Of a stretch of 64,000 nucleotides of DNA, positions 27,366 to 62,815 are shown piece after piece; position 1 is the first letter of the stretch; each line of letters starts with the position of its first letter. The notes beneath the pieces are model-generated. The model did no database searches. It was not told the DNA's origin and saw only the letters and a list, made by a program, of their open reading frames with translations. Location of the stretch: NCBI GenBank assembly GCA_000999095.1, contig LCFP01000007.1:5013-69012 (forward strand), read 5' to 3'. Source of the stretch: Candidatus Gottesmanbacteria bacterium GW2011_GWA2_43_14 (GTDB lineage: Bacteria > Patescibacteriota > Microgenomatia > 2-02-FULL-39-11). Made by a program: the position numbers and the translations under genes.

Positions 27366-27400
27366 AACCTGGGAGGTAGCGCAGATACGCAACCTAGGGG
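27366..27400 (+). repeat. REP-like palindromic element, copy 1.
   Basis: AACCTGGGAGGTAGCGCAGATACGCAACCTAGGGG, located between the convergent genes tsf and the TraD-like gene. Confidence 0.7.
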
Positions 27401-29604
27401 GTAGTGACCATTTTTTCATCCTTACTTTTGGCCTTTTTGGTGTAGCGTTCTTTGGAAAGGCGCATCACTTTTTCCCTGTTCTGGTTAATGGATTTGGGCA
27501 AAGGCAAAGTGACGGCATGGAAGGGCAGGGATGTCAGGTTGTCGATGGCCAGCTTGATTATTATCTGGAAAGTGCCCAGGTTGACCAAATCTTCTTCTTT
27601 GTACCACTGGCCGAATTCCCTGGCCAGGTGGTGCGCATCCTGGGCGCCGATGATAAAGGAGATCAGTGTGCCGGCATTGCCGAAAATTGCCTTCTGGACG
27701 TCTTCCTCGACCTGGCCGACATACTGGTTGGCTAAAACGAGATTGAGCCGGTATTTCCGCGCCTCTGACAGGATTTTTATAAATGAGGTTGTAGCAAAAT
27801 TCTGGAACTCGTCGACATACATATAGAAATCCTTGCGTTCAGCTTCGGGCACATTGACCCGGTTCATGGCTGCCAGCTGGATTTTGGTGATGAACATGGC
27901 GCCGAGAAGTGCGGCATTGTCCTCTCCCAGTTTTCCCTGGGACAGATTGAGGATCAGTATTTTCCGGTTGTTCATGATGTCTTCCAGGTCGATGGTTGAG
28001 GTCGGATGCTCGAGGATCTGCCTGATTGTCGGCGACATGACAAACTGGCCGACTTTGTTCTGGATGGGGGCGATGGCCTCGCTTTTCAGGCGGGGATGCA
28101 TTTTGTCGTATTCATTCCTCCAGAAATTCTGCAGTATTTTGTCCTGGACTTTATTAAGGACCCGGGCGCGGAAATTCGCATCGGCCAGAAGGTCCGGCAC
28201 CATGACCAGAGTGGAATTGGGGTATTCCAGAAGAGTCAAAATGACGTTTCTCAGGATATATTCAAGCCTCGGCCCCCAGGAATAGGAATAGAGTTTGGAA
28301 AAAATGGAGACAATCCCGGAAGATATAAGTTCTTTATGCACGGGATTTTTAACTTCCAGGGGATTCATCCAGAAAGGCTGTTCCTGGTCATAAGGCTCGA
28401 GGTAGACCACATCATTCAGGCGGTAGGAAGGTACATAATCCAGTAAAATTTCCGACAGGTCCCCGTGCGGATCGATGACGCAGACTCCTTCCCGGTTGCG
28501 CATGTCATTGATGGCCATGTTGGCGATCAAAGTTGATTTGCCTGTGCCGGTTTTTCCGATTATATACATGTGTTTCCGGCGGTCATACTTTTTGACGCCG
28601 AAAGTGGTCAGGGTGTTTTTGTACTCGGCTTTGGCAAAAAAATTAATTTCCTGCTTTTCCTCATCGGACAGGTCGGTGGCGACAGGCAGATTGGGCGGCG
28701 GCTCGCCGGCCAATGATCTGCCCCAGGAAATATTTTTGATGCCGGCCAGAAGAATGGTAGGCGGGTGCCAAAGGGTAGCCAGCTCCATAGTATTTAAAAT
28801 CTGGTGGCGGGGAAAATGGCTTTTCTCCCTTTTTAATATTTTTTGGTAGGTTATATCCTTGAAAAACCAGCGTGGGCGCTTGAGAATAAAGCGGTTGCCT
28901 TCCCCCAGGGCAAAGGCGCCGAAAGCCCCGGCCAGATTGTACATCTGGGCATAAGCCTGTTGTCGGGTGGGGGCTCCGATCAGTATCCTGATATAAGTGC
29001 GGTAGCCGGTATGGTTGACTTTTTCTTCGATCAGTCGGGCCAGCGGAAACGGCCGGGTTTTGTCGGGCGCCCGGGGGCTCGGATCAGGCATGCCTTTTTG
29101 CAGCATCGATGCCACCATCCTCTGCCAGTTGAAATGCGGCGGTTCGATAACGATCTGGATCAGCCCCGATTCATCTTTGGAAAATTTGGAAAAGACGCCG
29201 ATTATGGAAGAGAGGGGATCGAGCTCCTTGAAATCTTTATAGGTGCGGATCGGGTAATAGAAATAGCTGGCAAGCATCAGATTGCCGATGGCCAGATACT
29301 TGCTTTTGATGATGTTTGACAGATAATCGGGTACTTTGCTGATGAGGATTTTGGGATACTGGCTGGTTATCTGGCTTTCCAGAAAAGTCTGGAATGACTT
29401 CGGTATGACGGAATAAAAATGAACACTTTGATTATAGGAAGCAATTTCAAAAGAGAGAGTCCTGACTTTTATCCAGAGCCTTTTCCAGTGGGGGATATGC
29501 CCGCCCGGAAAAAGTGAGGAAAAGACCTGGGTCATCATCTCCGGAGACTCTTCGCCTGTTTTGGATGATTTAATTTCCAGGACGACTTTAGATTCGGCTG
29601 CCAT
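27394..29604 (-). CDS. TraD/VirD4/HerA-FtsK-superfamily P-loop ATPase (about 736 aa).
   Basis: Walker A GKTGTGKST, Walker B FYMYVDEFQNF, and ARKYRLNLVLANQ. The start is taken at the ATG at 29604 (MAAESK...), because the longer ORF overlaps the divergent gene's promoter. Confidence 0.55.
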   Translation of the reverse strand: MAAESKVVLEIKSSKTGEESPEMMTQVFSSLFPGGHIPHWKRLWIKVRTLSFEIASYNQSVHFYSVIPKSFQTFLESQITSQYPKILISKVPDYLSNIIKSKYLAIGNLMLASYFYYPIRTYKDFKELDPLSSIIGVFSKFSKDESGLIQIVIEPPHFNWQRMVASMLQKGMPDPSPRAPDKTRPFPLARLIEEKVNHTGYRTYIRILIGAPTRQQAYAQMYNLAGAFGAFALGEGNRFILKRPRWFFKDITYQKILKREKSHFPRHQILNTMELATLWHPPTILLAGIKNISWGRSLAGEPPPNLPVATDLSDEEKQEINFFAKAEYKNTLTTFGVKKYDRRKHMYIIGKTGTGKSTLIANMAINDMRNREGVCVIDPHGDLSEILLDYVPSYRLNDVVYLEPYDQEQPFWMNPLEVKNPVHKELISSGIVSIFSKLYSYSWGPRLEYILRNVILTLLEYPNSTLVMVPDLLADANFRARVLNKVQDKILQNFWRNEYDKMHPRLKSEAIAPIQNKVGQFVMSPTIRQILEHPTSTIDLEDIMNNRKILILNLSQGKLGEDNAALLGAMFITKIQLAAMNRVNVPEAERKDFYMYVDEFQNFATTSFIKILSEARKYRLNLVLANQYVGQVEEDVQKAIFGNAGTLISFIIGAQDAHHLAREFGQWYKEEDLVNLGTFQIIIKLAIDNLTSLPFHAVTLPLPKSINQNREKVMRLSKERYTKKAKSKDEKMVTTP

Positions 29605-29673
29605 GTGGTTTAAGTATAGATTTTCCCTGTGCAAATTAAAAGTTGTATAATCACGCGAATCCGAAGGTCTTAT

Positions 29674-31464
29674 ATGGAAAATGAAGCCAGGAATCAATTG
29701 ATATTAAAACTAAGCCATAATTTTGAATTTGCCACTGCCAGTCTAGATCAATTTTATACAGACTTTTTGGAAAATAATTTGGAGATAAAAGACAAAGTAG
29801 ATACTTTTGCAAAAAGAGTAAATGCTTTATATGGCGGGCAGGAAGCAAGCTATATCGAACACGCATTGAAATTGGCAGTTATAAGTTATCAGTATAATTG
29901 GGATTCTTTAAAACATTACCGAAAATCTCCAACACCGGAAGGGAAAAAAGTTCCAACGCTTTTCCATTCATTGGAAATGGCAGACAAACTGCTTGACGGG
30001 GACGGCCGTGATGATAAGCCCTTCCGCTGGGAAGCTGTAGCCGCCATTTTAATGCATGATATTCCTGAGGATGTGGAAATGGTATTTGTAGAAAACGGGG
30101 GTGAATTTCAGGTAAAAGGAGAAAAATGGTTCGATTTAATTCGTGATTCTTTTGAAACGACCGGTAAAGCTGATTTAATAGTTGATCTGATAAAAGGGGT
30201 AACAGAGAGAAAAATTCCTGATAGGTATAGCGAAGAAGGGAGGGATATCAGAGAAAAAATAAAGGCAACATCAATTTTTAAGATGATTAAAGCCTATGTT
30301 GTTAACGGTCGGATAAAAGGCAGAAAAGTCTTAATGGATGTTCCGGACGTAGAATTAGAGTCGGTTTATGAGGTTGTCTTTAACTTGAATCATTTATTTG
30401 ACAGCGCACTGAGGTCTCCGGAACATCTTCAAATACTGTTATTAAAGATTACGGACATCTGGCATAACTTTCAGACACCGGATTGGGTAAAATCTTCCAA
30501 AGTACTGCGGGGCCGTCTGGCCGCTAGTTTAGCAGAATGGTTTGGTTGGTATTCTATGAGATCAGATTTAGTTACCTTATTAGGTAATGTTGCTGATACT
30601 ACCACGGCATATGCGCCGGAATTGGAATATGAGTTACTTCCCCATAGTGAATTAATGGATAAAATGCTTAAGATGGAGGAATTTGGAAATCAGTTTATTG
30701 AAACACTTAAGAAAAAAGGCATTATACCCGGGACAGCAGAATTTATTTCATCAATAGGTTTTCCGGTCGTAAACAGTGAATATGAATTGGGGAAATTTGA
30801 CGGATCAACCCTGCCAAAACCAGAATTTATAGTATCTTTTGAAAACGAGGCTTTTACGATTTTAGAGGGCGACATAAAGCAAAACTATACCACTATAAGG
30901 TTATTATTACAGAATCAGGAGGTTGCTGCAGGTGAGTCTATAGCCGGTTTAAAAATAAAAAATTACCAGGACAGCATATATTACAGAAAACTAATGGGAC
31001 GATATAGAATTGACGGAGTTTTAAAATTAGGAAACAATGAAGGATTTTTATTTAGAATGGAGAGCAATGAGCCTTATATGACTGATTACTTTAAGGAAAG
31101 ATCGGATGTAAATTATACGGAAATACCCGAATATAAGGGGTTATTTCATAATAAACTCAGGGATAAAGAAGGATGGAGGATTCATTTAAATGCACTAATA
31201 GGTTTTTTCTACGAACCAAATATGCCTTCTTCTCTGTCCAGATTGATATCTCCAGTATTTTACGACGGTTCACTTTATTTTGTTGATGGGGAGCAGACAT
31301 TTTCAGAATTAAAAGATCTATTAAATTTAAAAGCGGATATTTTGATTGATAATCCCGTAAGTTATAAAAATAAAAGAATCACCGGTAAAACTAAAGTTCG
31401 TGATTTATTTCCATCTGCAGCCAGATCTCACGTTATCAAGAGGAGAATGATTACCGTTCAATAA
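29674..31464 (+). CDS. HD-domain protein with a RelA/SpoT-type hydrolase fold and a ~350-aa unknown C-terminal region.
   Basis: YIEHALKLAVISY, AAILMHDIPEDV and KITDIWHNFQT align to SpoT HD motifs (PYITHPVAVA, ALLHDVIEDT, KLADRTHNMRT). The -10 box TGTATAAT at 29645 supports the start at 29674. Confidence 0.5.
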   Translation: MENEARNQLILKLSHNFEFATASLDQFYTDFLENNLEIKDKVDTFAKRVNALYGGQEASYIEHALKLAVISYQYNWDSLKHYRKSPTPEGKKVPTLFHSLEMADKLLDGDGRDDKPFRWEAVAAILMHDIPEDVEMVFVENGGEFQVKGEKWFDLIRDSFETTGKADLIVDLIKGVTERKIPDRYSEEGRDIREKIKATSIFKMIKAYVVNGRIKGRKVLMDVPDVELESVYEVVFNLNHLFDSALRSPEHLQILLLKITDIWHNFQTPDWVKSSKVLRGRLAASLAEWFGWYSMRSDLVTLLGNVADTTTAYAPELEYELLPHSELMDKMLKMEEFGNQFIETLKKKGIIPGTAEFISSIGFPVVNSEYELGKFDGSTLPKPEFIVSFENEAFTILEGDIKQNYTTIRLLLQNQEVAAGESIAGLKIKNYQDSIYYRKLMGRYRIDGVLKLGNNEGFLFRMESNEPYMTDYFKERSDVNYTEIPEYKGLFHNKLRDKEGWRIHLNALIGFFYEPNMPSSLSRLISPVFYDGSLYFVDGEQTFSELKDLLNLKADILIDNPVSYKNKRITGKTKVRDLFPSAARSHVIKRRMITVQ

Positions 31465-31681
31465 CATGAATATTACGTTATTTTTACAGTCCGGGTATTG
31501 GCTTCATATTTTTGTATTACCGGGGCAGCCCGTCATTCTTATGAGGTAATTTTTGATCTGCAACCGGGTGAATCGCCGCCGGAAAAAGATCAATGTATAG
31601 TACATCATAACCCGGCTACTTTATTTTTAGTTAAGCCTCTATAATCTTCTTGTCAAAAAAAATACTTCCTGTTATCCTTTA

Positions 31682-32251
31682 ATGCGTATGGAAGAGCCGT
31701 TAATTACTGAAACAAGAGCCCGGATGCAGAAAGCCCTCCAGGTTTTGGCCGATGATTTGGGCACGATCAGGACAGGCAGGGCAACGCCCGCCCTGGTTGA
31801 AAATGTGGTTATTTCAGCCTATGAGGGGACGCAGAATCTTAAACTGCGGGAAATGGCGACCATAACAACAGAAGGTCCGCGGACGGTTCTTATAGCACCG
31901 TTTGATCCGTCAGTTATTAGAGATATCGAAAAAGGCATTAACAGTGCCAATTTAGGATTTACTGCCGCTCCCGACGGCAATATTCTCAGAATTAATATAC
32001 CGGCATTGACATCTGACAGGCGGGTTGAGTTTATTAAATTGGCGGGAACTAAAATCGAAGGCGGCCGGGTTTTAGTCAGGCAGGTCAGGCATGACGTCAT
32101 GTCCAATATCAAAAGAAGTTTTGAAGCTAAAGAATTATCCGAAGATGATAAAAAAAGGCTCGAAAAAGAAATTCAGGATCTGACTGACAATATGATGGAG
32201 GAAATCGAAGCTATGCGGCATAAAAAAGAAGAGGAACTGCAGCAGGTTTAA
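31682..32251 (+). CDS. frr: Ribosome recycling factor.
   Basis: Full-length RRF (189 aa). Confidence 0.9.
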   Translation: MRMEEPLITETRARMQKALQVLADDLGTIRTGRATPALVENVVISAYEGTQNLKLREMATITTEGPRTVLIAPFDPSVIRDIEKGINSANLGFTAAPDGNILRINIPALTSDRRVEFIKLAGTKIEGGRVLVRQVRHDVMSNIKRSFEAKELSEDDKKRLEKEIQDLTDNMMEEIEAMRHKKEEELQQV

Positions 32252-32253
32252 TT

Positions 32254-32715
32254 ATGACGGATAATACTGACAATCCCGATTTGCCGGAAAGCGTATCACC
32301 TGATGAAATACCCGGCCAGGATGCTTCGGTCATGCTCAATCTGGAGCAACTGGTCAAAAACCACCTGACGCAAATAGAGCAGACAAAAGATAAGCTTAAA
32401 AAGCACCGGGAAATGCTGGATGACATTTTTCTTAACGATCCGACCTATCAGGAACACGATAAGAAAGCCAAAGAAGCGGTTAAAGTCAAAAGCGCCACCA
32501 GAAGCGAACTTCTGAAAAGGACTGATGTTGCCGATTTAAACAACAAAGTAAAGGAGATGAAAATTTCCGTCAAGGAATTGCAGGAAGCCTTGAATGAATA
32601 TGTTCGCGAATATCAGAGACTGTCCGGAGTCAACGAAATTACCGATGATAAGGGGAATGTGATGGAAATAGTCTATACCGTCAAGCTTGTCCGCAAATCT
32701 TCAAAGAAAAGTTGA
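32254..32715 (+). CDS. Hypothetical coiled-coil protein (153 aa).
   Basis: It starts 2 nt after frr. It is acidic and K/E-rich, with no known motifs. Confidence 0.45.
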   Translation: MTDNTDNPDLPESVSPDEIPGQDASVMLNLEQLVKNHLTQIEQTKDKLKKHREMLDDIFLNDPTYQEHDKKAKEAVKVKSATRSELLKRTDVADLNNKVKEMKISVKELQEALNEYVREYQRLSGVNEITDDKGNVMEIVYTVKLVRKSSKKS

Positions 32716-32729
32716 TTTTTCGCTCCGAC

Positions 32730-34379
32730 TTATTTTAACAGTGTCATTTCCCGCTCGACGATTTTTTTCAGGATTGCCTGGGAAACCGCATAGGTAGATT
32801 CCACACCTTCATATGAAAGATTTCTGACGCCCAAATTTTTGGCTTTCGAATAGGGTGTGTCCGAAGCATAATGGGCTATGCCCAGTTCAAAGGGTGTGGG
32901 GGAGAGGTTGATGAATTCATTTTCCTCATAGCGGTTATAGTAGATGAATTCATATGCGGCGTTAAGATACGGTCCTCCCTCCATCTCTATATCGGTATAG
33001 CCTTGCCGAAACCAGTTTTCGATCATTTTGGCTGATTCCAAATAGGTGCCTTTGGTAGTTACGGTTTTTTGATTTTCCAGAATAAGCCCTGAACTGTAGA
33101 TGTTCTTAAAGTCTGCGGCCCGGAAGCAATTGCTGATGGCATAGGTGTTTTTGGTATGAACGTCAAAAACTGTGTTTGGCAAAAGTATATCTCCGACCTG
33201 GCCGGTTAAAGTCGCCGCTTTGCCCATGATATAAATTCCCAGCATTTGTCCTACATTTTGACCTATCTCCGTCAGGATCTGGTAAGCAGCCCAGCCCAGC
33301 GGATAATCAATATTGATGATAATGGATTTGCTTTTTGAAAGCGCTTTCAGGTCCAGATTGAGAAGCTGCGGCAACCCTGATAAGGGCAGGCGGGCAACCG
33401 GGATTATTTGGGCATCGATATCAAGAAAATGTTTTGCCCGGATGGTGGTAATACCCAGTTTTTTTTCAGATAAATTTTTAAGCTCAGTCAGATGTCCGGA
33501 TTTTCGCAGCGACTTTTTTGAAAGGTAATTCAGAAAATATTCGCGGGAGACATCCGCTGATTCTTTTTCTTTTTCCCGCCACAGATTGATAAGATTGTCA
33601 TCACCGCTTTTATAGAGATCTGCCACTATTTCTTTTTCATAATTTTTGGCAAACCTGGTTATAAGATTAACGACAGAATGGGTATTGGAAGAGATAAAGT
33701 ATACCGGCCTGTCCAAAAACTTAATTTCAGGGAGGGATTTGTCGATGTGGTCCCACCAATGCTGGGTAGCCCGGGCATATTCCATATATGAGCCGGAGAG
33801 TAAATGTACCGTAAAATCTATTTTGCGGTATTTAACCGCAGTCAGGAATTTATGGTAGTCATCTCCCCAGATTTTCTGGATCTTGGCGATATCTTCCTGA
33901 TCCAGTAAAATTTCCATGCTCTTTTTAACATCCCGGCTTTTTGCGAGTTTGGCATGCAGTTTGTTCCATTCAATCTGGAAAGCGGTCGATAACGTGATTA
34001 AATCATCAACATCTGTCACTGAAGCGATATAAACTGCCAGTGTATCCCTGCCGTTAAAATACATTTTACGCCTCCTGCCGGGAGCTGTGACTTCCGTCCA
34101 GTCATCTATATGTCCGAAACGGTTATTTTTAAAAACACGGATAGACTGTCCCAGGATGATTTTTTTAACCATGGACATGGTCGGCGGAAGGCGCAGCAGG
34201 GAATAGATAAAAGCTGCGGTATCTATTTTGTCGGAACCGGCCTTTTCATGAAGGATGGAGTCAGCATCCTTATGTGCTTCAATCAGTTTTTCTACCCGGA
34301 CAAAACCGGCTGATTTGAGAAGGGTACGGTAGTTTCTTATATATATTTCAATCTGTTCAATTCCGCCGTTACTATTCAT
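32730..34379 (-). CDS. Hypothetical protein with a PNP_UDP-like (nucleosidase/phosphorylase) C-terminal domain, possibly AMP-nucleosidase-like (549 aa).
   Basis: The C-terminal ...YTDIEMEGGPYLNAAYEF resembles the D-x-EME-x-AA active-site region of PNP/MTAN-family enzymes. The N-terminal region is of unknown function. Confidence 0.35.
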   Translation of the reverse strand: MNSNGGIEQIEIYIRNYRTLLKSAGFVRVEKLIEAHKDADSILHEKAGSDKIDTAAFIYSLLRLPPTMSMVKKIILGQSIRVFKNNRFGHIDDWTEVTAPGRRRKMYFNGRDTLAVYIASVTDVDDLITLSTAFQIEWNKLHAKLAKSRDVKKSMEILLDQEDIAKIQKIWGDDYHKFLTAVKYRKIDFTVHLLSGSYMEYARATQHWWDHIDKSLPEIKFLDRPVYFISSNTHSVVNLITRFAKNYEKEIVADLYKSGDDNLINLWREKEKESADVSREYFLNYLSKKSLRKSGHLTELKNLSEKKLGITTIRAKHFLDIDAQIIPVARLPLSGLPQLLNLDLKALSKSKSIIINIDYPLGWAAYQILTEIGQNVGQMLGIYIMGKAATLTGQVGDILLPNTVFDVHTKNTYAISNCFRAADFKNIYSSGLILENQKTVTTKGTYLESAKMIENWFRQGYTDIEMEGGPYLNAAYEFIYYNRYEENEFINLSPTPFELGIAHYASDTPYSKAKNLGVRNLSYEGVESTYAVSQAILKKIVEREMTLLK

Positions 34380-34470
34380 AGTCAGCCTATTATAACGTTT
34401 TTGGCTGTTTCTTTAAACGAGAATCATTGATTTATGTATTGAGGTTTTATACAATTGAAAAATTCTTATC

Positions 34471-35550
34471 ATGCTGGTTACACTGATTGTTTTTCTGTTA
34501 ATATTGTCGGTTTTGGTCATGGTCCATGAATTAGGGCATTTCCTGGCCGCTAAAAAATTCGGAATTTTTGTTGAAGAATTCGGTATCGGACTGCCGCCGC
34601 GGATATTCGGAATCAGAATTGGCGAGACTGTATATTCCGTCAACTGGCTTCCAATCGGCGGTTTCGTCAAACTCTACGGTGAAGAAGGGGATATGCCGGC
34701 CGCGAAAAAACAAAAAATTCCCAAAAACAGGGCTTTTTATGCCAGGCCCGTATGGCAAAGAGTCATCGTCATCTCAGCCGGGGTGGTCATGAATTTTCTC
34801 CTGGCCATAACCGTTATTTCCTATATTTTTACCCAGGGGGTGATGGTTCCTTCAGACCGGGTGCATATTGAAAAAATTGTGGAGGATTCACCGGCTGAAA
34901 GTGCGGGTTTGGAACAGGGGGATATTATTAAAACTATGATAGTAGACGGCCGGCAAATTACCGTTAAAACAGGCGATGATTTGATTAAAACAACTTCACA
35001 GAATCTGGGTCGGGAATTGACAATAGTCATTGAAAGAGAAGGCCGGGAGATGCAGGTATCCATAACCCCCAGGAAGGAATATCCTGAAGACCAGGGACCC
35101 ATGGGAGTAGTCATTTCGGCCTTTGAGGAAAAGAAATACAGCCTCAGCGAAGCGCCGATTGCCGGACTGCAACAGTCTTTGATGTTGTCATGGGTACTGG
35201 TCAAGGGCATAGCTCTGACTTTATGGAAAGTTATTACCTTCCAGTCCGTATCCAAAGATGTCGCCGGTCCGATCGGCATAGCCCAAATGACGGGCGAGGC
35301 CATCAAATTCGGGAGAAATGCAGTTCTGGAAATGCTGGGGCTTTTGTCATTAAATTTGGCTATCGTCAATATCCTACCGTTTCCGGCATTGGACGGCGGA
35401 CGGCTTCTTTTTATCCTGATCGAAGGCGCAACCGGCAGACGGGTAAAAACCAATTGGGAAAGGTATATTCACCAGGCGGGCATGGCCATTCTGCTATTTT
35501 TGATTCTGATGGTTACCGTCAACGACCTTGTCCGCATCTTCTCCAAATAG
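34471..35550 (+). CDS. rseP: RseP-like site-2 protease (M50 zinc metalloprotease with a PDZ domain).
   Basis: HELGH near the N-terminus within a TM segment, a PDZ region, and LPFPALDGGRL. Confidence 0.85.
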   Translation: MLVTLIVFLLILSVLVMVHELGHFLAAKKFGIFVEEFGIGLPPRIFGIRIGETVYSVNWLPIGGFVKLYGEEGDMPAAKKQKIPKNRAFYARPVWQRVIVISAGVVMNFLLAITVISYIFTQGVMVPSDRVHIEKIVEDSPAESAGLEQGDIIKTMIVDGRQITVKTGDDLIKTTSQNLGRELTIVIEREGREMQVSITPRKEYPEDQGPMGVVISAFEEKKYSLSEAPIAGLQQSLMLSWVLVKGIALTLWKVITFQSVSKDVAGPIGIAQMTGEAIKFGRNAVLEMLGLLSLNLAIVNILPFPALDGGRLLFILIEGATGRRVKTNWERYIHQAGMAILLFLILMVTVNDLVRIFSK

Positions 35551-35617
35551 TTCCAACCAACCTGGGAAAAATCCGGCTAACTGATAAAATGATTATGCAA
35601 ATATAGTAAAATAAACT

Positions 35618-41466: not shown

Positions 41467-41499
41467 AACCTGGGAGGTTGCGTAGATACGCAACCTGGG
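41467..41499 (+). repeat. REP-like palindromic element, copy 2.
   Basis: AACCTGGGAGGTTGCGTAGATACGCAACCTGGG. The stem GGTTGCGTA pairs with TACGCAACC. Confidence 0.75.
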
Positions 41500-53702: not shown

Positions 53703-54012
53703 AAAGTCAAAAGCAACCCGCGAGAAGCTTCTTAAGGCATTAAAAAACGTGCCTGATCCGGAACTGGGGATCTCCATTGTCGATCTGGGTTTGGTTTATG
53801 ATGTCAAAATAAATCAACAGGGACAGGTTGAGGTGCTGATGACTTTGACAACCATGGGTTGTCCCTTATTTGATTTAATCAGGGATCCCGTCGAAGCCAC
53901 CTTGATGAAAATTAAGGGCGTTAAAAATGTGACTGTCAATCTGACCTTTGAGCCCCCATGGTCAGTCGAGCGGATGACGGAAGAAGCCAAAGTTAAATTG
54001 GGTTTTTTCTGA
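53650..54012 (+). CDS. DUF59/MIP18-family Fe-S cluster assembly protein (SufT-like).
   Basis: DPELGISIVDLGLVYDV. The start is uncertain: ATG at 53650 or 53656, or TTG at 53680. It overlaps the recR 3' end. Confidence 0.65.
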   Translation: MPMKSRCQGRLKAGGNIKKSKATREKLLKALKNVPDPELGISIVDLGLVYDVKINQQGQVEVLMTLTTMGCPLFDLIRDPVEATLMKIKGVKNVTVNLTFEPPWSVERMTEEAKVKLGFF

Positions 54013-54017
54013 AAATT

Positions 54018-54515: not shown

Positions 54516-54518
54516 ATA

Positions 54519-55943
54519 ATGAAACTCTACAACACACTTTCCGGAAAAAACGAAGAGTTCCGGCCGTTAAATCCGGCTGTGGTCACCTATTATTCCTGCG
54601 GTCCGACGGTTTATGACTATGCCCATATCGGCCATGCGAGGACATATATCTTTGCCGATATCCTGGAGAGGGTGTTAAGGTTTAACGGATTCAAAGTTAA
54701 GAGAGTCATGAATATCACCGATGTCGGACATCTGACATCGGATGCGGACAGCGGGGAAGACAAAATGGAGAAAGGGGCAAAGAGGGAGAAAAAATCAGTT
54801 TGGCAGATTGCCGAATTCTACACCAACGATTTTTATGAAATGCTCAAGCTTCTAAATATCCGCCGGCCGGAAAATATCACCAAAGCTACCGAATATATTC
54901 CGCAGATGATAAGTCTTATAAAGGAATTGGAAAAGAAAGGCTTTACTTATAAAACCGGTGACGGTCTCTATTTTGACACTTCCCGTTTGACCGACTACGG
55001 CAAATTAACCGGCAAATCGTTCAAGGACTTGGTAAGTTCATTAAAAGCCGGCATAAGGGTGGAACAAGTAGAGGGTAAGAAAAATATTACCGATTTTGCC
55101 TTGTGGAAATTTACTCCATTTCGGGTAATCAGGCAAATGGAGTGGGAGAGTCCCTGGGGCAAAGGCTTTCCCGGCTGGCATATTGAATGTTCGGCTATGG
55201 CTATGGCCATATTGGGTGAGACTATCGATATCCATACAGGAGGTGTAGACCATATTCCCATACACCACACAAATGAAATTGCCCAAAGCGAGGCGGCGAC
55301 AGGCAAGCCGTTTGTCAGATTTTGGCTTCATGCGGGACATCTGACCGTCGAGGGCGAAAAAATGAGCAAATCCCTTGGTAATTTCATCAGGGTTGCCGAA
55401 CTGGCGGCCAAAGGTTATCAGCCGTTGGCCTTGAGATATCTTTTTTTGACAGCCTCATACCGCCGGGAGATGAATTTTACCCTGGCTGCCTTTGAGGGAG
55501 CCCAAGCAGCTTATCTGAATCTCAGAGAAATTATGGCTATCTTAAAAGACAGCTCCCGGAAGGCTGGAAGAGAAAACTTATCGGTCGGGAAAGCGGTTAA
55601 AGCCGGCAATTTCCGGCAGGCTTTTACTGAGGCGGTCAGCGACGATCTGAATTTGGCCAAAGCCTTGGCTGTAACTTGGGAAACGGTTAAAAGCAATTTG
55701 TCACCCGGGGATAAATACGAGCTCCTATTAAGCTTTGATGAAGTTTTGGGCCTGGATCTGAAATCGGCAGAAAACGACTTGCAAAAGGCAATTCCTGACA
55801 ATATCAGGGAGCTTGTTATGAAGAGGCAAAAGTTGAGAGCGGAGAAAAAATTTGCCGAAGCTGACGAAGTCAGGGAAAAAATTGAAAAATCCGGCTTTGA
55901 AGTAATTGACACGGAGAAAGGGACAAGCGTTAAAAAGAAGTGA
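54519..55943 (+). CDS. cysS: Cysteinyl-tRNA synthetase.
   Basis: HIGH as HIGHARTY, KMSKS, and a TGA stop. Confidence 0.9.
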   Translation: MKLYNTLSGKNEEFRPLNPAVVTYYSCGPTVYDYAHIGHARTYIFADILERVLRFNGFKVKRVMNITDVGHLTSDADSGEDKMEKGAKREKKSVWQIAEFYTNDFYEMLKLLNIRRPENITKATEYIPQMISLIKELEKKGFTYKTGDGLYFDTSRLTDYGKLTGKSFKDLVSSLKAGIRVEQVEGKKNITDFALWKFTPFRVIRQMEWESPWGKGFPGWHIECSAMAMAILGETIDIHTGGVDHIPIHHTNEIAQSEAATGKPFVRFWLHAGHLTVEGEKMSKSLGNFIRVAELAAKGYQPLALRYLFLTASYRREMNFTLAAFEGAQAAYLNLREIMAILKDSSRKAGRENLSVGKAVKAGNFRQAFTEAVSDDLNLAKALAVTWETVKSNLSPGDKYELLLSFDEVLGLDLKSAENDLQKAIPDNIRELVMKRQKLRAEKKFAEADEVREKIEKSGFEVIDTEKGTSVKKK

Positions 55944-56557
55944 AAAAGCCGCTGTATGCCACTATCGGTATTGATATAGACAATACCATCTGCGATTCCT
56001 ATCCGGCCTATCTGGAAAAGTATAACATCAAATACCGGAAACAGGTCCAACTGACTGAAATCCTTGATTTCTATTACCTGAATAATCTGGCCAATCAGGA
56101 AGGTGCCGGTTTATCCGGTTTTATCGACGAACTGGTTTTAAGTGAGGAGTTCCAAATTTCCCTAAGACCTGTCATTGACGCTCCGGAAGCAATACATGCC
56201 TGGTCCCGTGAAGGCCACCGGATACATTATGTGACCGCCCGTCCGATCCAAATGTACAAAGTAACTAAAAAATGGCTGGAAAAGCACGGTTTTTGGTTTA
56301 CAAATACCCGCCTGGATCTTTTTAACCCAAAAAAAGGTTATCAAAGCGATATAGATTATAAAATTACTGTTGCGGAAAAATCCGGCATCAAAGTTTTTAT
56401 CGAGGATGCGGGAGAAATCGCCAGCGCTTTGAAAATCCCCGTTTTTTTATTTGACCGGCCGTGGAACAGGGGGAAAATGCCTGATAATGTCCAACGGGTG
56501 ACAACCTGGGAAGAAATAGGGGAAAATTTACCCGACGTTTTACAAAGGCAGCCTTAA
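55940..56557 (+). CDS. HAD-superfamily hydrolase, possibly a nucleotidase.
   Basis: A GTG start overlaps the cysS stop. The DIDNT motif is HAD motif I. Confidence 0.5.
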   Translation: MKKPLYATIGIDIDNTICDSYPAYLEKYNIKYRKQVQLTEILDFYYLNNLANQEGAGLSGFIDELVLSEEFQISLRPVIDAPEAIHAWSREGHRIHYVTARPIQMYKVTKKWLEKHGFWFTNTRLDLFNPKKGYQSDIDYKITVAEKSGIKVFIEDAGEIASALKIPVFLFDRPWNRGKMPDNVQRVTTWEEIGENLPDVLQRQP

Positions 56558-57570
56558 AAGTGCTGCCTATAGAAATCGAGGCTTCTGGTATAAGCCGAAT
56601 CCCAGGCTCCTTGTTGGAAATTATGGTTTTCGCCCGGGTAGGTAAAATATTCGATGTCTTTATTCTTGTCATTTAATGATTGATAAAACTCATCAGACCA
56701 ATACTTCGGAACTTCCCAATCAGCTTCACCCTGGTGCAGTTGGATGGGAGCTTCTATCGAATCCCAAAATCCACTGATTGAATATTGACTGCTGTCATAC
56801 CGGCTTTCAAAATCAGCCACCAGTTTTCTTAAAGCCCGTCCCTGGTCATCGAATTCGTCAGTATAAAAAAGGATAGAATAGGGAAAAGAGCGGGAAACAG
56901 GCGCCCAGAGCACAGTAGGATAACCGGCTCCGGTTATTTCCAATACAGCCAGAGCAATATGACCGCCGTTGGAATGCCCCCAGATGCCGATTTTATCTGC
57001 TTTGGCCCGGTTGATCAGACCTGCCATAATGAGAGAGTCATTTAAATTATGGACTGATTTTATCAGGTTGATGGCTGTTGTGTAGGTTTCAAACCTCTCT
57101 TCAAGCGGGTAAGCCGAAGGCGATGCGGATTGTCCGTATCCTAAAAAATCCGGCGCCAGGGTGATAATACCTGCCGAAGCCAGAGCTTCTCCCATCCTTT
57201 GACTGCCTACTCCGGGTGAATAAATTGACCGGTCCACATACCCCCGCAAAAGTATGACTACCGGGTTGAGTATTTCAGTTTTCGGCAGATTAATCAGGCC
57301 GCTTACTTTTTTGCCGTCTGAGAGGAAATTAAAACTTCTGGATTGAAAATTGAGGCTGTCGTTTACGATTTCACCCAGTGAAATTTTTTGGGCGGGGAAA
57401 TTCCGCAGTCTTAAAGATCCGATTGAATATTTGTCCAAAATCCTGGGGTCTTCAACAGTATCTTTTACCGGGTTAAAAAGAGGGGGCAGTTGATAGTTTA
57501 TAAGACTTGCAGTGATGACTATAATCAGAAGTGTTACGGCCAGGGCACTTGTCAAAATAGCCTTTTTCAT
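56554..57570 (-). CDS. Exported alpha/beta hydrolase (S9/dienelactone hydrolase-like).
   Basis: An N-terminal signal/TM segment and the nucleophile elbow GHSNG. Confidence 0.7.
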   Translation of the reverse strand: MKKAILTSALAVTLLIIVITASLINYQLPPLFNPVKDTVEDPRILDKYSIGSLRLRNFPAQKISLGEIVNDSLNFQSRSFNFLSDGKKVSGLINLPKTEILNPVVILLRGYVDRSIYSPGVGSQRMGEALASAGIITLAPDFLGYGQSASPSAYPLEERFETYTTAINLIKSVHNLNDSLIMAGLINRAKADKIGIWGHSNGGHIALAVLEITGAGYPTVLWAPVSRSFPYSILFYTDEFDDQGRALRKLVADFESRYDSSQYSISGFWDSIEAPIQLHQGEADWEVPKYWSDEFYQSLNDKNKDIEYFTYPGENHNFQQGAWDSAYTRSLDFYRQHF

Positions 57571-57630
57571 TTTATGGTTTGGGACTTATTTTAATTTACT
57601 ATTATATTTGTTATACTACCGGAAACAGTT

Positions 57631-57975
57631 ATGGACAATCTTTACGAATTGATGCTCGTCGGCAACAGCAAACTCTCCGAGGCTGAAGAAAAGAAGCTTG
57701 AAGGAAAAATTGCCGATTTTCTGAAGAATAAGGGAAAAATTCTGAAAAAAAGCCTGTTCGGCAAAAAAGAGCTCGCCTTTCCGATTAAAAAGGAAGCATC
57801 GGGAAATTTCTGGCTGTACAATTTGCAGTTAATCTCAACCGAAGTAAACCCTTTTTCGCAAAAGTTGCGTATGGAAGAATCAGTATTGCGATTTTTACTG
57901 ATAAAAAATCCGGAGGTCAAAACCAAAAATAAAACAGAGCCGGTAGTTAAAGTGAAAAAGGAGAAAAAAGCATAA
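57631..57975 (+). CDS. rpsF: 30S ribosomal protein S6.
   Basis: YELMLV and ELAFPI resemble S6 motifs. The rpsF-ssb-rpsR gene order is conserved. Confidence 0.75.
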   Translation: MDNLYELMLVGNSKLSEAEEKKLEGKIADFLKNKGKILKKSLFGKKELAFPIKKEASGNFWLYNLQLISTEVNPFSQKLRMEESVLRFLLIKNPEVKTKNKTEPVVKVKKEKKA

Positions 57976-58514
57976 TGTCGGCCAGATCTCTTAATAAAGT
58001 CACTCTTATAGGCAATCTGACCCGGGATCCGGAATTGAGATTTACACCCTCCGGAACGGCCGTGTGTACATTAGGGCTGGCAACTAACCGTTCCTGGACT
58101 ACGCAAACCGGCGAAACACGGGAGGAAACAGAATTTCACCGTATCGTGGCCTGGAATAAACTGGCGGAATTATGTTCCCAGCTTCTTGCCAAAGGCCGGA
58201 AAATTTATGTCGAAGGCAGGCTGGCAACCCATTCCTGGACCGCCCAGGACGGCAGTCAAAGAACTACTACGGAAATTGTTATTGACGATATGATTATTCT
58301 GGATTCAAAGAAAGTCGTTAAAGAATCTCAGACTGATGAAACTGAGGCGGCGGCGGAATCCGTTCCTTATGAGGAAACAGCGGAAGCTGATAAAGCCAAG
58401 GAAATTAAAGCAAAACCGGTAGCTAAAAAAACAGCGGTAGTTAAAGAAGAAAAGAAGGAGGCAGAGGAAACATCAGGCAGTGAAGACATCACCCCTGACG
58501 ATATTCCTTTTTAA
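57975..58514 (+). CDS. ssb: Single-stranded DNA-binding protein.
   Basis: OB-fold motifs and the C-terminal DDIPF tail. Confidence 0.9.
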
Positions 58515-58519
58515 AAATT

Positions 58520-58765
58520 ATGCGCCGAAAAATGATGAGACGTCCAAGACGAATAATACGTATTAAGGATTGCCCCTATTGTAAAAACTTAATTGAACCG
58601 GATTATAAGGAAGTCGACAATCTGAAACATTATATATCGGAAAGGGGTAAAATATTACCCAAATCTCTCAGCGGGATTTGCCAAAAGCATCAGCTGAGAC
58701 TGACCAAATCAATCAAACAAGCCAGATATCTCGCTCTCCTTCCTTTTTTAGTAAGGCCCTCATAG
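58520..58765 (+). CDS. rpsR: 30S ribosomal protein S18.
   Basis: CPYC, plus the conserved S18 core. Confidence 0.85.
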
Positions 58766-58778
58766 AGGTATTTAGCCG

Positions 58779-59507
58779 ATGCTATCACATATAAGAATTG
58801 CCCTTCCTCCTCAAGTCCACCTGACTGTAGAAGAAGGCGATCAGATTAGCGAGAATACGGTAATTTACAAGACAGGAGAAGAAGCGCTTGTTTCAGAGAT
58901 ACCTGTTGCTCAACTGTTAAAAGTCAAACCGGACCTGACAGTGAAATATCTGCGCAGAAGACCCGGAGAAGCAGTGGTAAAAGGTGATATTTTAGCCGAA
59001 AAAAAGGGCATCCTGGCTACACTAAGTGTCCGTTCACCCCATGATGGCGTGATAAGGGAACTGGATTTAAAAAAAGGACATATTATCCTGGCCGGGAAAG
59101 AGGATACACAGAAAACAAAAGTCAGCTTGCCGATTAACGGGAAAATTAAAAAGATCAGCCGTGCATATTTGGAAATAGAAGTTAAAGGTGAAGTTCTGGA
59201 AGGCAGGAAAGGCGCGGGCAATGACCGCTTCGCTCAATTGATGCTTATTCCGGACGACCGTTTCAATATTACGGATTTTGATGCTGACGTTGAAGATAAA
59301 ATCGTATATATTAAAAAAGCACCGCGCGAAGTCGTACTTAAACTCGATGTCCTTGGTGCTAAAGGATTAATCTCGGCAGAAATGGCGGAAGCAGGGGATT
59401 TTTCAGCGGTTGAGGTTGATATCGCAGAGGCAGGAAAATTACACAAAGCCGCAAATAAATGGATCTGGTTAAAACCCAGTGAAAAATTGATATTAATTAT
59501 CGATTAA
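58779..59507 (+). CDS. Hypothetical protein (242 aa) occupying the position where rplI usually sits.
   Basis: It does not resemble L9. It has a possible barrel-sandwich hybrid motif, KGDILAE...SPHDGVI. Confidence 0.5.
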   Translation: MLSHIRIALPPQVHLTVEEGDQISENTVIYKTGEEALVSEIPVAQLLKVKPDLTVKYLRRRPGEAVVKGDILAEKKGILATLSVRSPHDGVIRELDLKKGHIILAGKEDTQKTKVSLPINGKIKKISRAYLEIEVKGEVLEGRKGAGNDRFAQLMLIPDDRFNITDFDADVEDKIVYIKKAPREVVLKLDVLGAKGLISAEMAEAGDFSAVEVDIAEAGKLHKAANKWIWLKPSEKLILIID

Positions 59508-59513
59508 ATAAGC

Positions 59514-60767
59514 ATGATAAAAATTAGAAATACCGTTTTTATACTGATTTTGCTGGTTTTGACTTACGGAACCGGCTACAATTTCGGCCGGAACAGCATT
59601 CCTCCTTTTAAAAGAAACACGGTTGAAAGCCGTACACCTGATTTGCGCGGTTATGATTTTTCACTGTTCTGGGATGTTTGGGACAGGCTGAAATATTACT
59701 ATATAGATAAGGAAAAGTTGGACCCGGCAAAACTGATTTACGGTGCTATCAGCGGTATGGTGGCGTCTCTTGACGACCCTTATACGGTTTTTCTGTCTCC
59801 GGAACAAAACCAGGAAGCCAAAGATGATTTGGGCGGCAAGTTTGAAGGTATAGGCGCACAGCTGGGTGTTAAAGATAAGAAAATTGTTATTGTGGCACCA
59901 TTGAAAAAATCGCCGGCAGAAACAGCCGGTCTTAAAGCCGGTGACTGGATTATTAAAGTCGACGGCGAGGATACCGTCAATTGGACATTGCCCGAAGCAG
60001 TGTCCAAAATCAGAGGGCCTAAAGGCAGCCAGGTTATGTTGAATATCCTCCACGCAGAAGCGGATAAAAGTGAAGATGTCAGCGTATTTCGCGATGAAAT
60101 AAAAGTGGCTTCGGTTGAGCTGGATGTCATTTATCTGGATTGTACTTCAGACCCGGGAGCAGGCTGCCAAAAGGCAGATGCCAATGCTGCTTCCGGCCTC
60201 AAATTTTACCATTTGAAATTAGGCCGTTTCGGCGATAATACCAACAGTGAATGGAATAAAATTGTCAGCCAGATAAAAGCCCAATATAATCCCGGGACGG
60301 ATGCCGGGATTATCTTTGATCTGCGCAACAATCCGGGGGGTTACTTAAGCAGCTCTGTTTTTATTGCTTCGGAGTTCATAGACCAGGGTGCTGTGGTGAT
60401 TCAGGAAAATGCCGACGGCAGCAAAAAAACCTATAATGTAGAACGGCCGGGAAAGCTCCTGGAAATTCCTTTAATAGTCTTAATCAATAAAGGCAGCGCT
60501 TCGGCATCGGAAATTGTGGCCGGCAGCTTAAGGGTCAGGAACAAAACGAAATTAGCCGGTGAGACTTCTTTCGGCAAAGGCACGATCCAGGAAGCACAGG
60601 AATTGTCCAAAGGCGCCGGTATCCATATCACCACCGCCAAATGGCTTCTGCCGGACGGGACATGGATAAACGGAGAGGGTTTAAAGCCTGATGTTGAGGT
60701 TGAATCCGATTTAGAATCCGAAGATGACAACCAGCTACTTCAGGCGGCAAAAATATTGTCAAAATAA
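59514..60767 (+). CDS. ctpA: Carboxyl-terminal processing protease (S41).
   Basis: A PDZ domain and the catalytic GSASASE. Confidence 0.85.
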   Translation: MIKIRNTVFILILLVLTYGTGYNFGRNSIPPFKRNTVESRTPDLRGYDFSLFWDVWDRLKYYYIDKEKLDPAKLIYGAISGMVASLDDPYTVFLSPEQNQEAKDDLGGKFEGIGAQLGVKDKKIVIVAPLKKSPAETAGLKAGDWIIKVDGEDTVNWTLPEAVSKIRGPKGSQVMLNILHAEADKSEDVSVFRDEIKVASVELDVIYLDCTSDPGAGCQKADANAASGLKFYHLKLGRFGDNTNSEWNKIVSQIKAQYNPGTDAGIIFDLRNNPGGYLSSSVFIASEFIDQGAVVIQENADGSKKTYNVERPGKLLEIPLIVLINKGSASASEIVAGSLRVRNKTKLAGETSFGKGTIQEAQELSKGAGIHITTAKWLLPDGTWINGEGLKPDVEVESDLESEDDNQLLQAAKILSK

Positions 60768-60834
60768 TATTTTTGTTATAATACAATTGTATTTTTCAGC
60801 AAAATCTCAGTTAAATTAAATATAAATTAAGACC

Positions 60835-61998
60835 GTGATGAAAAGATTATTAGTTCTAATAGCCCTTTTCCTGCTACTGATTTTTATCGGTTCCTCAGGC
60901 AGGAATCTTGATTTTTCATTCGGCACAATCGGCAATCTTTTTAAATCCCAGGAATCGCAAATAGGTACGGATTCGGAAAAAATCAGGATTATTACTGAAG
61001 AATCGGTAATTACTTCGGTGGTCGACAAGGTTTCACCTTCGGTTGTCACCGTGTCAGTTGTCAGTAACCGCTCCTTGGGCCGCATTTTTGACGATAATCC
61101 GTTTGACCCTTTTGATATGTTCCGCCAGGGGCAGAGCCAGCAGCAGCGGGTGGAACAGGATATCGGTACGGGCTTCATCGTTTCAGAGGATGGATTGATA
61201 GTTACCAATAAGCATGTAGTTTCCGATACGGATGCCAAATACCGTGTTATCACCCATGATGATAAAAGCCACGATGTGGAAAAAGTATACCGGGACCCGA
61301 CCAATGATCTGGCTATAATCAAAATTGCCGACGGGGATTTAAGTCCGGTAGAAATCGGAGACTCATCCAAAATTAAAGTCGGCCAGCTGGCCATTGCCAT
61401 CGGGACTGCTTTGGGAGAATTCAGAAATACGGTCACCGTCGGTGTCATATCGGGGCTCGGCAGGGGAATAACCGCCGGCAGCCCCTTCGAGGGTTTTGTC
61501 GAAAGGCTGGATAATGTTATCCAGACTGATGCGGCAATAAACCCGGGAAATTCCGGAGGGCCGCTTCTCAACAGTGCGGGACAGGTGGTGGGTATGAATG
61601 TGGCTGTCTCGGCTGAAGGGCAGAATATCGGGTTTGCCCTGCCGATTGGTACGGTTAAAGAAGTACTGGACCAGTTTCAAAAGTCCGGAGGCCGTTTCGA
61701 AAGGCCTTATTTGGGGGTCAGGTATAAAATGATCACCCGGGATCTGGCTCTTTTAAACGAAGTCCCGGAAGGGGCTTATATACAGGAAGTCATTGAAGAC
61801 TCACCGGCAGATAATGCCGGAGTCCGGGTCGAGGACATAATCACCAAAATCGATAATCAGAAAGTGACGGAAAATGACGGCGGCTTGGCCAGGATTATCG
61901 CCGCTAAAAAAATCGGAGACAGGACAGCCCTGGAAGTCTGGCGCAACGGTGACTCCATCAATATCAGCGTCACTATCGGTGAATCCTCCGGCGAATAA
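60835..61998 (+). CDS. htrA: HtrA/DegP-family serine protease with a PDZ domain.
   Basis: GTGFIV (His region) and GNSGGPLL (Ser), a PDZ domain, and an N-terminal signal/TM segment. Confidence 0.9.
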   Translation: MMKRLLVLIALFLLLIFIGSSGRNLDFSFGTIGNLFKSQESQIGTDSEKIRIITEESVITSVVDKVSPSVVTVSVVSNRSLGRIFDDNPFDPFDMFRQGQSQQQRVEQDIGTGFIVSEDGLIVTNKHVVSDTDAKYRVITHDDKSHDVEKVYRDPTNDLAIIKIADGDLSPVEIGDSSKIKVGQLAIAIGTALGEFRNTVTVGVISGLGRGITAGSPFEGFVERLDNVIQTDAAINPGNSGGPLLNSAGQVVGMNVAVSAEGQNIGFALPIGTVKEVLDQFQKSGGRFERPYLGVRYKMITRDLALLNEVPEGAYIQEVIEDSPADNAGVRVEDIITKIDNQKVTENDGGLARIIAAKKIGDRTALEVWRNGDSINISVTIGESSGE

Positions 61999-62029
61999 CC
62001 TGGGAGGTTGCGTAGATACGCAACCTAGG
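61997..62029 (+). repeat. REP-like palindromic element, copy 3, forming the left flank of the RAYT gene.
   Basis: AACCTGGGAGGTTGCGTAGATACGCAACCTAGG, nearly identical to copy 2. Confidence 0.8.
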
Positions 62030-62043
62030 AAATTTTTACAGGA

Positions 62044-62715
62044 TTACTCAAGAAGTAAATGTTCAATCCTCTTTAATCCTCGTTGATAATCTGCTTGGTT
62101 TAAAATAAACTCTTTGTATTTTTCAGAATCTTTAAAAAATGACAAAATTTTTGTAGTATTTACGATATTGTTGTTACTTTTTAACAGATAAGATTGAAAA
62201 GATGACCATGGATAGGATTCAACATCAGAAATTCTTTTTATTAAATATGAAGTGTAGGGGTTTAAATGAATATAGCGTGAAACATGAATGAATTGATTTT
62301 CAGTTTCGATTCTTATCGCTTTAAATTGATTTAAAAAAATAGCACCGTCCTTTTTATTAAGACTGTTAAAAAACCGTGTATAACTATTTTGGAAATTGCT
62401 TAAAAATTTCGATATTCCATTGTCAAATTCTTGTTCGAGGAGGAAATGGAAATGATTTGGCATTAAGCAATAGCAATAAATTTGGATCATTTTCCGATCC
62501 TTTTTAAGGTCTTTTAGTATCTTTTGTCGCTTTTGTCGTTCCAAACTTAGAATTTTTGACAAGCTAAATGGGGGATTAAGATATTGGTATAATTCAAGTG
62601 CAAGAAGTGCTCTTTCATATTCCCGTTTCGAGGTAAATGTTGGTCGACGATCAATTCCTCGATTAAATACATGATAGATTTCATGATTGACTAAGGGTAC
62701 CAGTCGTCCGGGCAT
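62044..62715 (-). mobile_element. REP-associated tyrosine transposase (RAYT, IS200/IS605 TnpA-like HuH Y1 transposase).
   Basis: HuH motif LMPNHFHFLL and catalytic Tyr region SRYIHLNP. The product is 223 aa and is flanked by inverted REP copies. Confidence 0.75.
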
Positions 62716-62782
62716 ATGCTATATAAGATTATTATTCCTCTTTAAACAAGTCAAGTAAAGTTAACCTGCTTGTATACGGAAT

Positions 62783-62815
62783 TCCCAGGTGTGAAGCTAA
62801 TCAACCTCCCAGGTT
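62783..62815 (-). repeat. Diverged inverted REP-like copy, forming the right flank of the RAYT gene.
   Basis: The reverse complement reads AACCTGGGAGGTTG...ACCTGGG. Fourteen of fourteen 5' bases match the REP consensus. Confidence 0.6.

Follow-up and report, generated by a model that had tools for sequence, protein, structure and literature searches.

Nucleases of the Y1 HUH kind serve as the transposases (TnpA) of IS200/IS605 insertion sequences (IS) and also occur outside IS. In the classification of Quentin et al. (2018), proteins with the signature Y---Q belong to IS200, whereas those with Y---NP form class 2, which is related to the tyrosine transposases linked to repetitive extragenic palindromes (REPs), known as RAYTs or TnpAREP (PMC6006769). 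Units of the second kind include the REPtrons, represented by the group 2 RAYT of E. coli (subclass 2.2) and the group 3 RAYTs of Pseudomonas and Stenotrophomonas (subclass 2.5). The E. coli TnpAREP cleaves at a CT on either side of the REP, and the cleavage sites of IS608 are defined next to its hairpin (PMC8266576). Most descriptions of non-IS Y1 nucleases (RAYTs) concern Proteobacteria, Cyanobacteria and Bacteroidetes, and a preference for large genomes is reported (PMC6006769). A literature search of incomplete coverage returned no paper linking RAYT/TnpAREP proteins to Patescibacteria or Microgenomates, which is weak evidence of novelty. Here we describe a locus from this part of the Candidate Phyla Radiation (CPR): a stretch of 64,000 nucleotides (hereafter the window) from Candidatus Gottesmanbacteria bacterium GW2011_GWA2_43_14, a groundwater organism of very small genome, contig LCFP01000007.1, in which the gene for a 223-aa Y1 HUH nuclease stands between two inverted copies of a short repeat element that also occurs elsewhere in the window.

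We consider this arrangement likely to be a REPtron-like unit, that is, a single-copy, largely vertically inherited Y1 HUH nuclease/transferase gene of the RAYT kind with inverted cognate elements and a few dispersed copies. Systems of this kind are known; the searchable literature describes none in this lineage and form. The Y1 HUH motifs are intact, the linkage of gene and repeat is strict, the termini of the element are conserved and covarying, and a predicted promoter lies in the upstream copy. The features concerned are as follows.

61997..62029, plus strand: cassette copy of the element on the downstream side of the nuclease gene, inverted relative to the gene, 14 nt past the gene stop
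62044..62715, minus strand: Y1 HUH nuclease gene, RAYT/TnpAREP-like, 223 aa; HUH motif H88-F-H90, catalytic tyrosine Y148 in YIHLNP
62784..62815, minus strand: 32-nt cassette copy (AACCTGGGAGGTTGATTAGCTTCACACCTGGG) on the upstream side of the nuclease gene and oriented as the gene is
27366..27398, plus strand: solo copy, AACCTGGGAGGTAGCGCAGATACGCAACCTAGG, with 2 mismatches against the 33-mer, beginning 3 nt past the tsf stop
41467..41499, plus strand: solo copy of consensus sequence, with the dnaX stop 11 nt before it and the ybaB start 52 nt after it

The nuclease and its closest relatives

The protein encoded at 62044-62715 carries the motifs MPNHFHFLL and SRYIHLNP, and an identical one is on record for Candidatus Gottesmanbacteria GW2011_GWA2_4x. 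Its match to Pfam Y1_Tnp (E 9e-8) is the only one at E up to 0.1, with no Bac_DnaA_C or HTH tail, and its single match in NCBIfam is REP_Tyr_transpos (NF047646), at 50.2 bits. When PDB sequences were searched with phmmer, the E. coli TnpAREP (4ER8; E 0.002) was the sole match at E<0.01. An AlphaFold (AF2) model built on 34 homologs, among which H88, H90 and Y148 are invariant, reached a predicted local distance difference test score (pLDDT) of 86.6 and has an extra helical C-terminal region (residues 160-223). The best Foldseek match of this model was again 4ER8 (E 6e-6, TM 0.68 on the target, 17% identity in the structural alignment); the IS608 and ISDra2 transposases followed at about 1e-3, some two orders of magnitude behind. 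In sequence and profile as well as in predicted fold, the nuclease is therefore nearer to TnpAREP/RAYT than to the TnpA of IS200/IS605, and the grouping with ordinary IS200 TnpA that the first-pass annotation of this DNA had considered was not found. The full-length family comprises 297 clusters at 50% identity (E up to 1e-30); its named records come from Gottesman-, Levy-, Davies- and Woykebacteria and the 'Patescibacteria group', with one labelled Parcubacteria.

What the locus has in common with the IS200/IS605 transposases (IS608, ISDra2) is the Y1 HUH fold, together with hairpin ends of a kind that those enzymes recognise as single-stranded DNA (ssDNA); their cleavage sites are set by short hairpin-adjacent sequences. 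However, those enzymes have Y---Q and about 150 aa, are multicopy with same-strand ends and often accompany tnpB, and they rank below 4ER8 in the fold search and give no sequence match to the nuclease. By motif, length, copy number, end orientation and fold ranking, the system is not an IS200/IS605 element.

Within class 2, the pair NHFH and YIHLNP is the signature listed for subclass 2.1 (PMC6006769, Table 1), which is group 1 of Bertels et al. (2017) and, in the view of Quentin et al., probably the TIRYT family (PMC6006769), the protein of the TIRtrons of Di Nocera et al. (2013). Compared by motif, the match to NH[YF]H and Y[IV]HLNP is exact. At 223 aa the protein is close to the subclass median of 238, and in both cases the gene is flanked by inverted repeats from a moderately abundant family, the flanking 16-mers of group 1 numbering about 12 per replicon. 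On the other hand, Pfam detects no tail here that resembles Bac_DnaA_C, HTH_23 or HTH_28, and the flanks, CCTGGGAGGT, do not fit the TIRYT pattern GGGGWSAS. Moreover, REP-like structures are reported to be missing from subclass 2.1; here, by contrast, the dispersed copies form hairpins.

A further likeness is to subclass 2.6 and the class 3 TnpAY1, described with 'atypical secondary structures', whose flanks also lack GTAG and have copies elsewhere in the genome. One subclass 2.6 REP of Pirellula staleyi (CCCAGGTTGC..GCAACCTGGG) has an AGGTTGC/GCAACCTGGG core in common with the element, which may be coincidence. However, subclass 2.6 proteins carry NH[LIV]H and YIH[QN]NP rather than NHFH and YIHLNP, have a median length of 179 aa and come mostly from Bacteroidetes.

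Copies of the element in the window

The first-pass annotation had reported a palindrome of about 33 bp after tsf, dnaX and htrA, and near-identical copies do stand at all three places, with two mismatches at 27366-27398 and none at 41467-41499 and 61997-62029; 100 dinucleotide-preserving shuffles of the window gave no match. It had also placed a diverged inverted copy from 62783, which begins one base further on, at 62784, and is 32 nt long. With the other three this copy shares AACCTGGGAGGTTG, its opening 14 nt, and the ACCTGGG at the end; its interior is different. The window therefore holds four full copies, where none is expected from the shuffles. Two of them, at 27366 and 41467, are solo, and the other two bracket the nuclease gene, as had been described; that gene occurs once in the 64 kb. 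A relaxed scan of the window (up to 3+1 substitutions) found no full copies beyond the four.

The copy at 61997 shares 2 nt with the TAA stop of htrA, the CCTAGG of the copy at 27366 provides the TAG stop (27394-27396, minus strand) of a convergent TraG/TrwB-like gene, and the copy at 62784-62815 is 8 nt from the stop of a release-factor-like gene. An element of the same position and type as the 61997 copy is present at the sister locus L053, and the copy at 62784-62815 is homologous to upstream-type copies at 20 other loci. The window has a positive GC skew nearly throughout, and all three plus-strand copies lie on the G-rich strand, a placement that would fit activity on the lagging-strand template (n=3).

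Two smaller claims of the first-pass annotation fared less well. The GGAGGT within the element, which had been likened to a Shine-Dalgarno (SD) sequence, is half of the palindromic box ACCT-GGG-AGGT; the SD of ybaB itself lies about 40 nt past the 41467 copy, and there is no sign of ribosome binding at the element. A partial copy had also been placed after rseP, near 35555, where the following feature is found.

35558..35572, plus strand: possible relic or target, CAACCTGGGAAAAAT, matching the element's 3' end, 8 nt past the rseP stop

The sequence is real, and CAACCTGGGAAA (35558-35569) is identical to the 3' end of the 41467 copy, but it is short and, taken alone, within chance expectation; CAACCTGGGAAAAAT is a weak candidate for an element relic or target.

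The cassette across Microgenomates

A scan of one genome per species with the pattern AACCTGGGAGGT-N10-18-ACCTRGG gave 90 loci, against an estimate of about 78 chance matches. About 52 of these loci come from other, non-CPR phyla, some of them within a conserved coding region of Bacteroidales, and they were set aside because their number fits the chance estimate. The other 38 come from few CPR genomes, and at 12 of them a nuclease homolog, 51-77% identical to that of the window, lies between a plus copy and a minus copy. Seven more homologs were fetched by protein identity alone, in order to remove the ascertainment bias of a pattern search. At each of the seven, the upstream copy occupies -55 to -24, so that 23 nt separate it from the ATG, and an inverted copy follows the gene stop after 2-22 nt. 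Together with a second type of cassette in a sister species (L102; see below), the order element, gene, inverted element is therefore found at 20 of 20 other Microgenomates loci, and the element family is not confined to the window.

That the family reflects chance similarity or an assembly artefact is already refuted. The estimate that some 78 of the 90 scan matches arise by chance would favour this explanation, but none of the 100 shuffles contains any window match, the CPR matches concentrate in few genomes and flank homologous genes, and independent assemblies hold identical copies.

The neighbourhood of the cassette is retained between related species. The order ctpA-htrA-element-gene-element-prf-rpmE is the same in L053, where the nuclease is 77% identical to that of the window and the neighbouring proteins 75-88%, and three Daviesbacteria-type loci have a PseudoU-NaH...YebC-RuvC neighbourhood in common. 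These observations bear on the proposal that the cassette is an autonomous IS200/IS605-like IS with the elements as its ends, the solo copies being end remnants or miniatures like palindrome-associated transposable elements (PATEs) or miniature inverted-repeat transposable elements (MITEs). We regard this as distinctly unlikely. It would account for a compact cassette (about 820 nt in the window) that stands in different neighbourhoods by lineage, for the second-type cassette filling a sister-species spacer between rseP and proS in which the window has a mere fragment, and for the Daviesbacteria trio, in which the gene precedes YebC at two loci and follows it at one. However, never more than one gene copy per genome was seen among the fetched loci, and synteny is held at 77% protein identity. 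The cassette ends are inverted, whereas IS200/IS605 ends lie on the same strand (PMC8266576), and tnpB is absent. Y---NP in place of Y---Q, 223 aa in place of about 150, and a sequence and fold nearer to 4ER8 than to any IS200/IS605 TnpA also argue against it.

Thirteen of the loci (L002, L005, L009, L013, L017, L026, L043, L049, L062, L068, L074, L077 and L082) come from metagenome-assembled genomes (MAGs) titled 'uncultured Gammaproteobacteria'. Their taxonomy labels are probably wrong: we take the titles as mislabels because the comparable housekeeping genes or nuclease homologs resemble the Gottesmanbacteria window.

Conservation, covariation and folding of the element

When 75 copies are aligned, three boxes stand out as conserved, with xACCT-NGG-AGGTy on the 5' side and, after a variable interior of 10-14 nt, xACCT-NGG on the 3' side. 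Lineage variants include AACCTGGGAGGTT..AACCTAGG, the form of the window, as well as CACCTGGGAGGTG..CACCTAGG, CACCTGGGGGGTG and CACCTCGGAGGTG..CACCTCGG. The variant of Daviesbacteria CP066688.1 (820 kb) is CACCTGGGGGGTG...CACCTAGG. The boxes change in concert. Position 13 and the base preceding the 3' ACCT are T-A in 39 of the 75 copies and G-C in 18, position 1 follows position 13 (A-T in 47, C-G in 13), and the base after ACCT shifts in the 5' box as it does in the 3' box, from GGG/AGG to CGG/CGG, across lineages. These counts are support and not proof, because the kinship of the copies inflates them. RNAalifold, applied to the pattern-selected alignment, returned the CCTGGG/CCTAGG pairing alone and no covariation, a result that is uninformative because the search pattern had fixed the paired columns.

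On one strand, copies of the dispersed and downstream type fold as a bulged hairpin in which CCT pairs with AGG, followed by a GGG bulge and then the stem AGGTTG...CAACCT. The stem is lengthened to 9+3 bp in the window, where the consensus copies reach -10.9 to -11.1 kcal/mol as ssDNA, with z about -5 (-10.9 kcal/mol, z -5.2 at 41467; -11.1 kcal/mol, z -5.0 at 61997). The copy at 27366 folds less well (-6.2 kcal/mol, z -2.3), and the upstream copy at 62784-62815 forms a non-significant mini-hairpin of box 1 only (z -0.9).

One genome, QZIP01, contains head-to-head double elements with a common central palindrome, AACCTGGGAGGTT (L033:686-737, L056:1894-1945 and L040:3590-3660). They read CCTAGGTTTAAACGTAATC-AACCTGGGAGGTT-GCCCAGCTAGGC-AACCTAGG, a 'double-foot'-like form that the window lacks.

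Dispersal, gain and loss

In other Microgenomates genomes, too, solo copies outnumber the nuclease gene. Strict-pattern matches number 13 in JBGTMH01, 8 in QZIP01 and 5 in CAZDTO01, followed by genomes with 4 and 3, each with one gene locus. The solo copies are intergenic; many start within about 25 nt of a same-strand stop codon, and a sizeable minority have on their 5' side a divergent gene start instead. As solo copies lie at or over stop codons, they may also serve as 3' stem-loops on mRNAs.

The copy at 41467 provides the one clean presence/absence difference seen. The spacer between dnaX and ybaB, which is 95 nt with the element in the window, is only 6 nt in the sister species (L102 and L108), whose DnaX is 75% identical to that of the window, and 3 nt, again with no element, in the outgroup L103. 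These short spacers in relatives imply that the copy is a lineage-specific gain. It is identical in four other contigs of the same species, and no polymorphism within the species was seen, every same-species contig carrying the copy. One 543-nt contig of this species (L106:1-60) differs in sequence upstream of the AAAAATAATTAACCC that precedes the element, possibly through a rearrangement or chimeric assembly beside the element.

The site after tsf was tried as a second case, and a clean insertion there was rejected, as L108 has a UPF0259 gene (361 aa) and no element at that place; this gene lies between the TraG/TrwB-like gene and tsf and is absent from the window. The TraG/TrwB-like gene of the window (27394-29697, minus strand), which stops inside the 27366 element, has a different and longer C-terminal end than its 91%-identical counterpart at L108:10001-12220. 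Checks of orthologous sites in L002, L062 and L082 showed no insertion sites in common with the window.

The spacer between rseP and proS holds the second type of cassette in the sister species (L102:5575-6337, L108:5300-6062). The nuclease of this cassette is 51% identical, the element copies belong to the CACCTCGGGGGTG type, and an extra box 1 follows in tandem downstream. The corresponding interval of the window, 35551-35617, holds only the 15-nt fragment described above. Several RAYTs, each with its own repeat, are known in other bacteria (PMC6006769). The same spacer in L103 (2345-2418) reads CACACCCGTCGGGTG-atatgaggcta-CACCCCTCGG, possibly a diverged solo element with ACCC/GGGT in place of ACCT/AGGT in all three boxes.

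The distribution of the copies could also be read to mean that the elements are mainly host regulatory sequences (3' mRNA stem-loops, terminators or protein-binding sites), that the Y1 protein has been domesticated and no longer mobilises them, and that their spread was ancient or due to other processes. This is unlikely, although it has points in its favour. Besides the many copies close to same-strand stops, two copies in the window overlap stop codons; the termini are kept superphylum-wide at 50-60% protein identity, suggesting a constraint beyond selfish spread; and genomes of about 1 Mb retain the system even though non-IS Y1 genes reportedly favour large ones (PMC6006769). Against it, a sizeable minority of solo copies have a divergent gene start and not a stop on their 5' side, the invariance of the HUH residues and the tyrosine argues for retained cleavage chemistry, and related species differ in the presence or absence of a copy. 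Termination as the primary function is rejected, since a terminator scan of 61800-63000 calls no copy an intrinsic terminator, and scans of the window for Rfam families and tRNAs gave no matches.

A predicted promoter in the upstream copy

TTGACA, or a form of it with 1-2 mismatches, lies towards the 3' end of the upstream copy at 17 of 21 loci, followed after 17 nt by TAnnnT and, 6-9 nt further on, by the ATG; two of the 17 have G or A as the first base of the -10 hexamer. This geometry is a promoter-like match of the sigma-70 type, from which a leaderless or nearly leaderless mRNA would be expected. In most other lineages the spacer between element and ATG is 23 nt, and the -35 box is inside the element. 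The window and L053 are exceptions, with a spacer of 68-91 nt and a weaker promoter match further downstream, as in the following feature.

62716..62783, minus strand: spacer between the upstream copy and the ATG, 68 nt, with a weak promoter-like TTTACT-17-AATAAT (62759-62731)

How far the locus resembles a REPtron

The locus resembles REPtrons in several respects. In both, a Y1 HUH gene with the Y---NP motif, which here is probably single-copy and largely inherited together with its neighbourhood, has inverted hairpin flanks, and the element is also dispersed between genes, mostly after them. The hairpin is bulged, as in group 2, and has on both sides a CT, where the E. coli TnpAREP cuts (PMC8266576). 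The first-pass annotation had called the arrangement a canonical REPIN-RAYT system. The dispersed family, the cognate Y1 HUH gene and the inverted flanks stand; the word canonical does not.

Several observations weigh against the REPtron-like reading. No GT[AG]G tag precedes the hairpin; the conserved 5' sequence is xACCTNGG, an 8-nt box repeated on both sides of the hairpin in place of the tag, and the conserved 12+7 nt are kept superphylum-wide. The doublets that define REPINs, in which two inverted REPs with a short spacer between them make up the replicating unit (Bertels and Rainey), are missing from the window: the copies at 27366 and 41467 have no nearby inverted partner, and doubles occur only in QZIP01. 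Copy number lies far under that of classical REPs, from units to about a dozen rather than hundreds. A metagenome scan with a window-specific pattern gave no genome-wide count but only three loci, none of this species, two of them being the sister-species cassette and one a solo copy. The protein, with its additional helical C-terminus, scores below the 80-bit cutoff of the RAYT equivalog NF047646, and its motif signature fits subclass 2.1, described as without REPs (PMC6006769). The upstream copy bears the gene's putative promoter, which is a further difference from REPtrons. Upstream-type copies have no significant fold (z -0.9 to -1.2 as ssDNA), and pairing past position 13 is only 50-61% in 33-nt copies and at most 32% in 32-nt copies; as a result, the hairpin is well supported for the dispersed type only. 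Finally, distant lineages place the cassette in differing gene neighbourhoods, and the cassette may have moved as a whole unit.

Proposed mechanism and significance

By analogy with the E. coli TnpAREP and IS608, the nuclease of this REPtron-like unit would mobilise the elements. The protein would bind the folded top strand when this is present as ssDNA, for instance on the lagging-strand template, and would cleave at equivalent positions of the repeated xACCTNGG boxes flanking the hairpin, plausibly at the shared CT (xACC|T). A 5'-phosphotyrosine intermediate would form and the ends would then be rejoined, opening a way to excise or copy the short element or to insert it downstream of genes. 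Binding at the promoter-bearing upstream copy would, in most lineages, also autoregulate the gene by repressing its leaderless transcript.

A different view of the same evidence, which we put forward only tentatively and think doubtful, is that this is a distinct, Microgenomates-wide domesticated lineage of Y1 HUH proteins. Its site, xACCTNGGAGGTy...xACCTNGG, is near constant while the protein is 50-60% identical, and it would be kept in genomes of about 1 Mb as a host-serving system and not a REP-spreading one, two systems with different site variants being able to coexist in one lineage. The host might then be served by site-specific processing of ssDNA where genes end, or by a self-regulated control that acts through the promoter-bearing copy.

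The locus brings a full-length Y1 nuclease family into ultra-small CPR genomes, with the same cassette at every locus examined. Conserved termini, three covarying boxes and a predicted promoter inside the upstream copy together make a compact comparative model, which could address how such enzymes choose their sites, why hosts keep the nuclease and whether proteins with a subclass 2.1-like signature truly lack REPs.

Other features of the window

The release-factor-like open reading frame (ORF) next to the cassette (62824-63525, minus strand) has a GGQ motif and encodes 233 aa, which is shorter than expected for a class-I release factor; its counterpart in L053 is 86% identical and of equal length. 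Just upstream of rpsB, a 126-aa ORF stands between the two copies of a direct repeat, at 25292-25425 and 25857-25991. The repeat measures about 134 nt (stretches of 94 nt at 97% and 45 nt at 89% identity), and both copies include a GC-rich hairpin as well as a terminator-like stem with a T run after it. At 9663-9832, where the ORFs 7447-9750 and 9659-9985 (minus strand) meet, an 85-nt unit is perfectly duplicated in tandem, which may be a real frame disruption or an assembly artefact.

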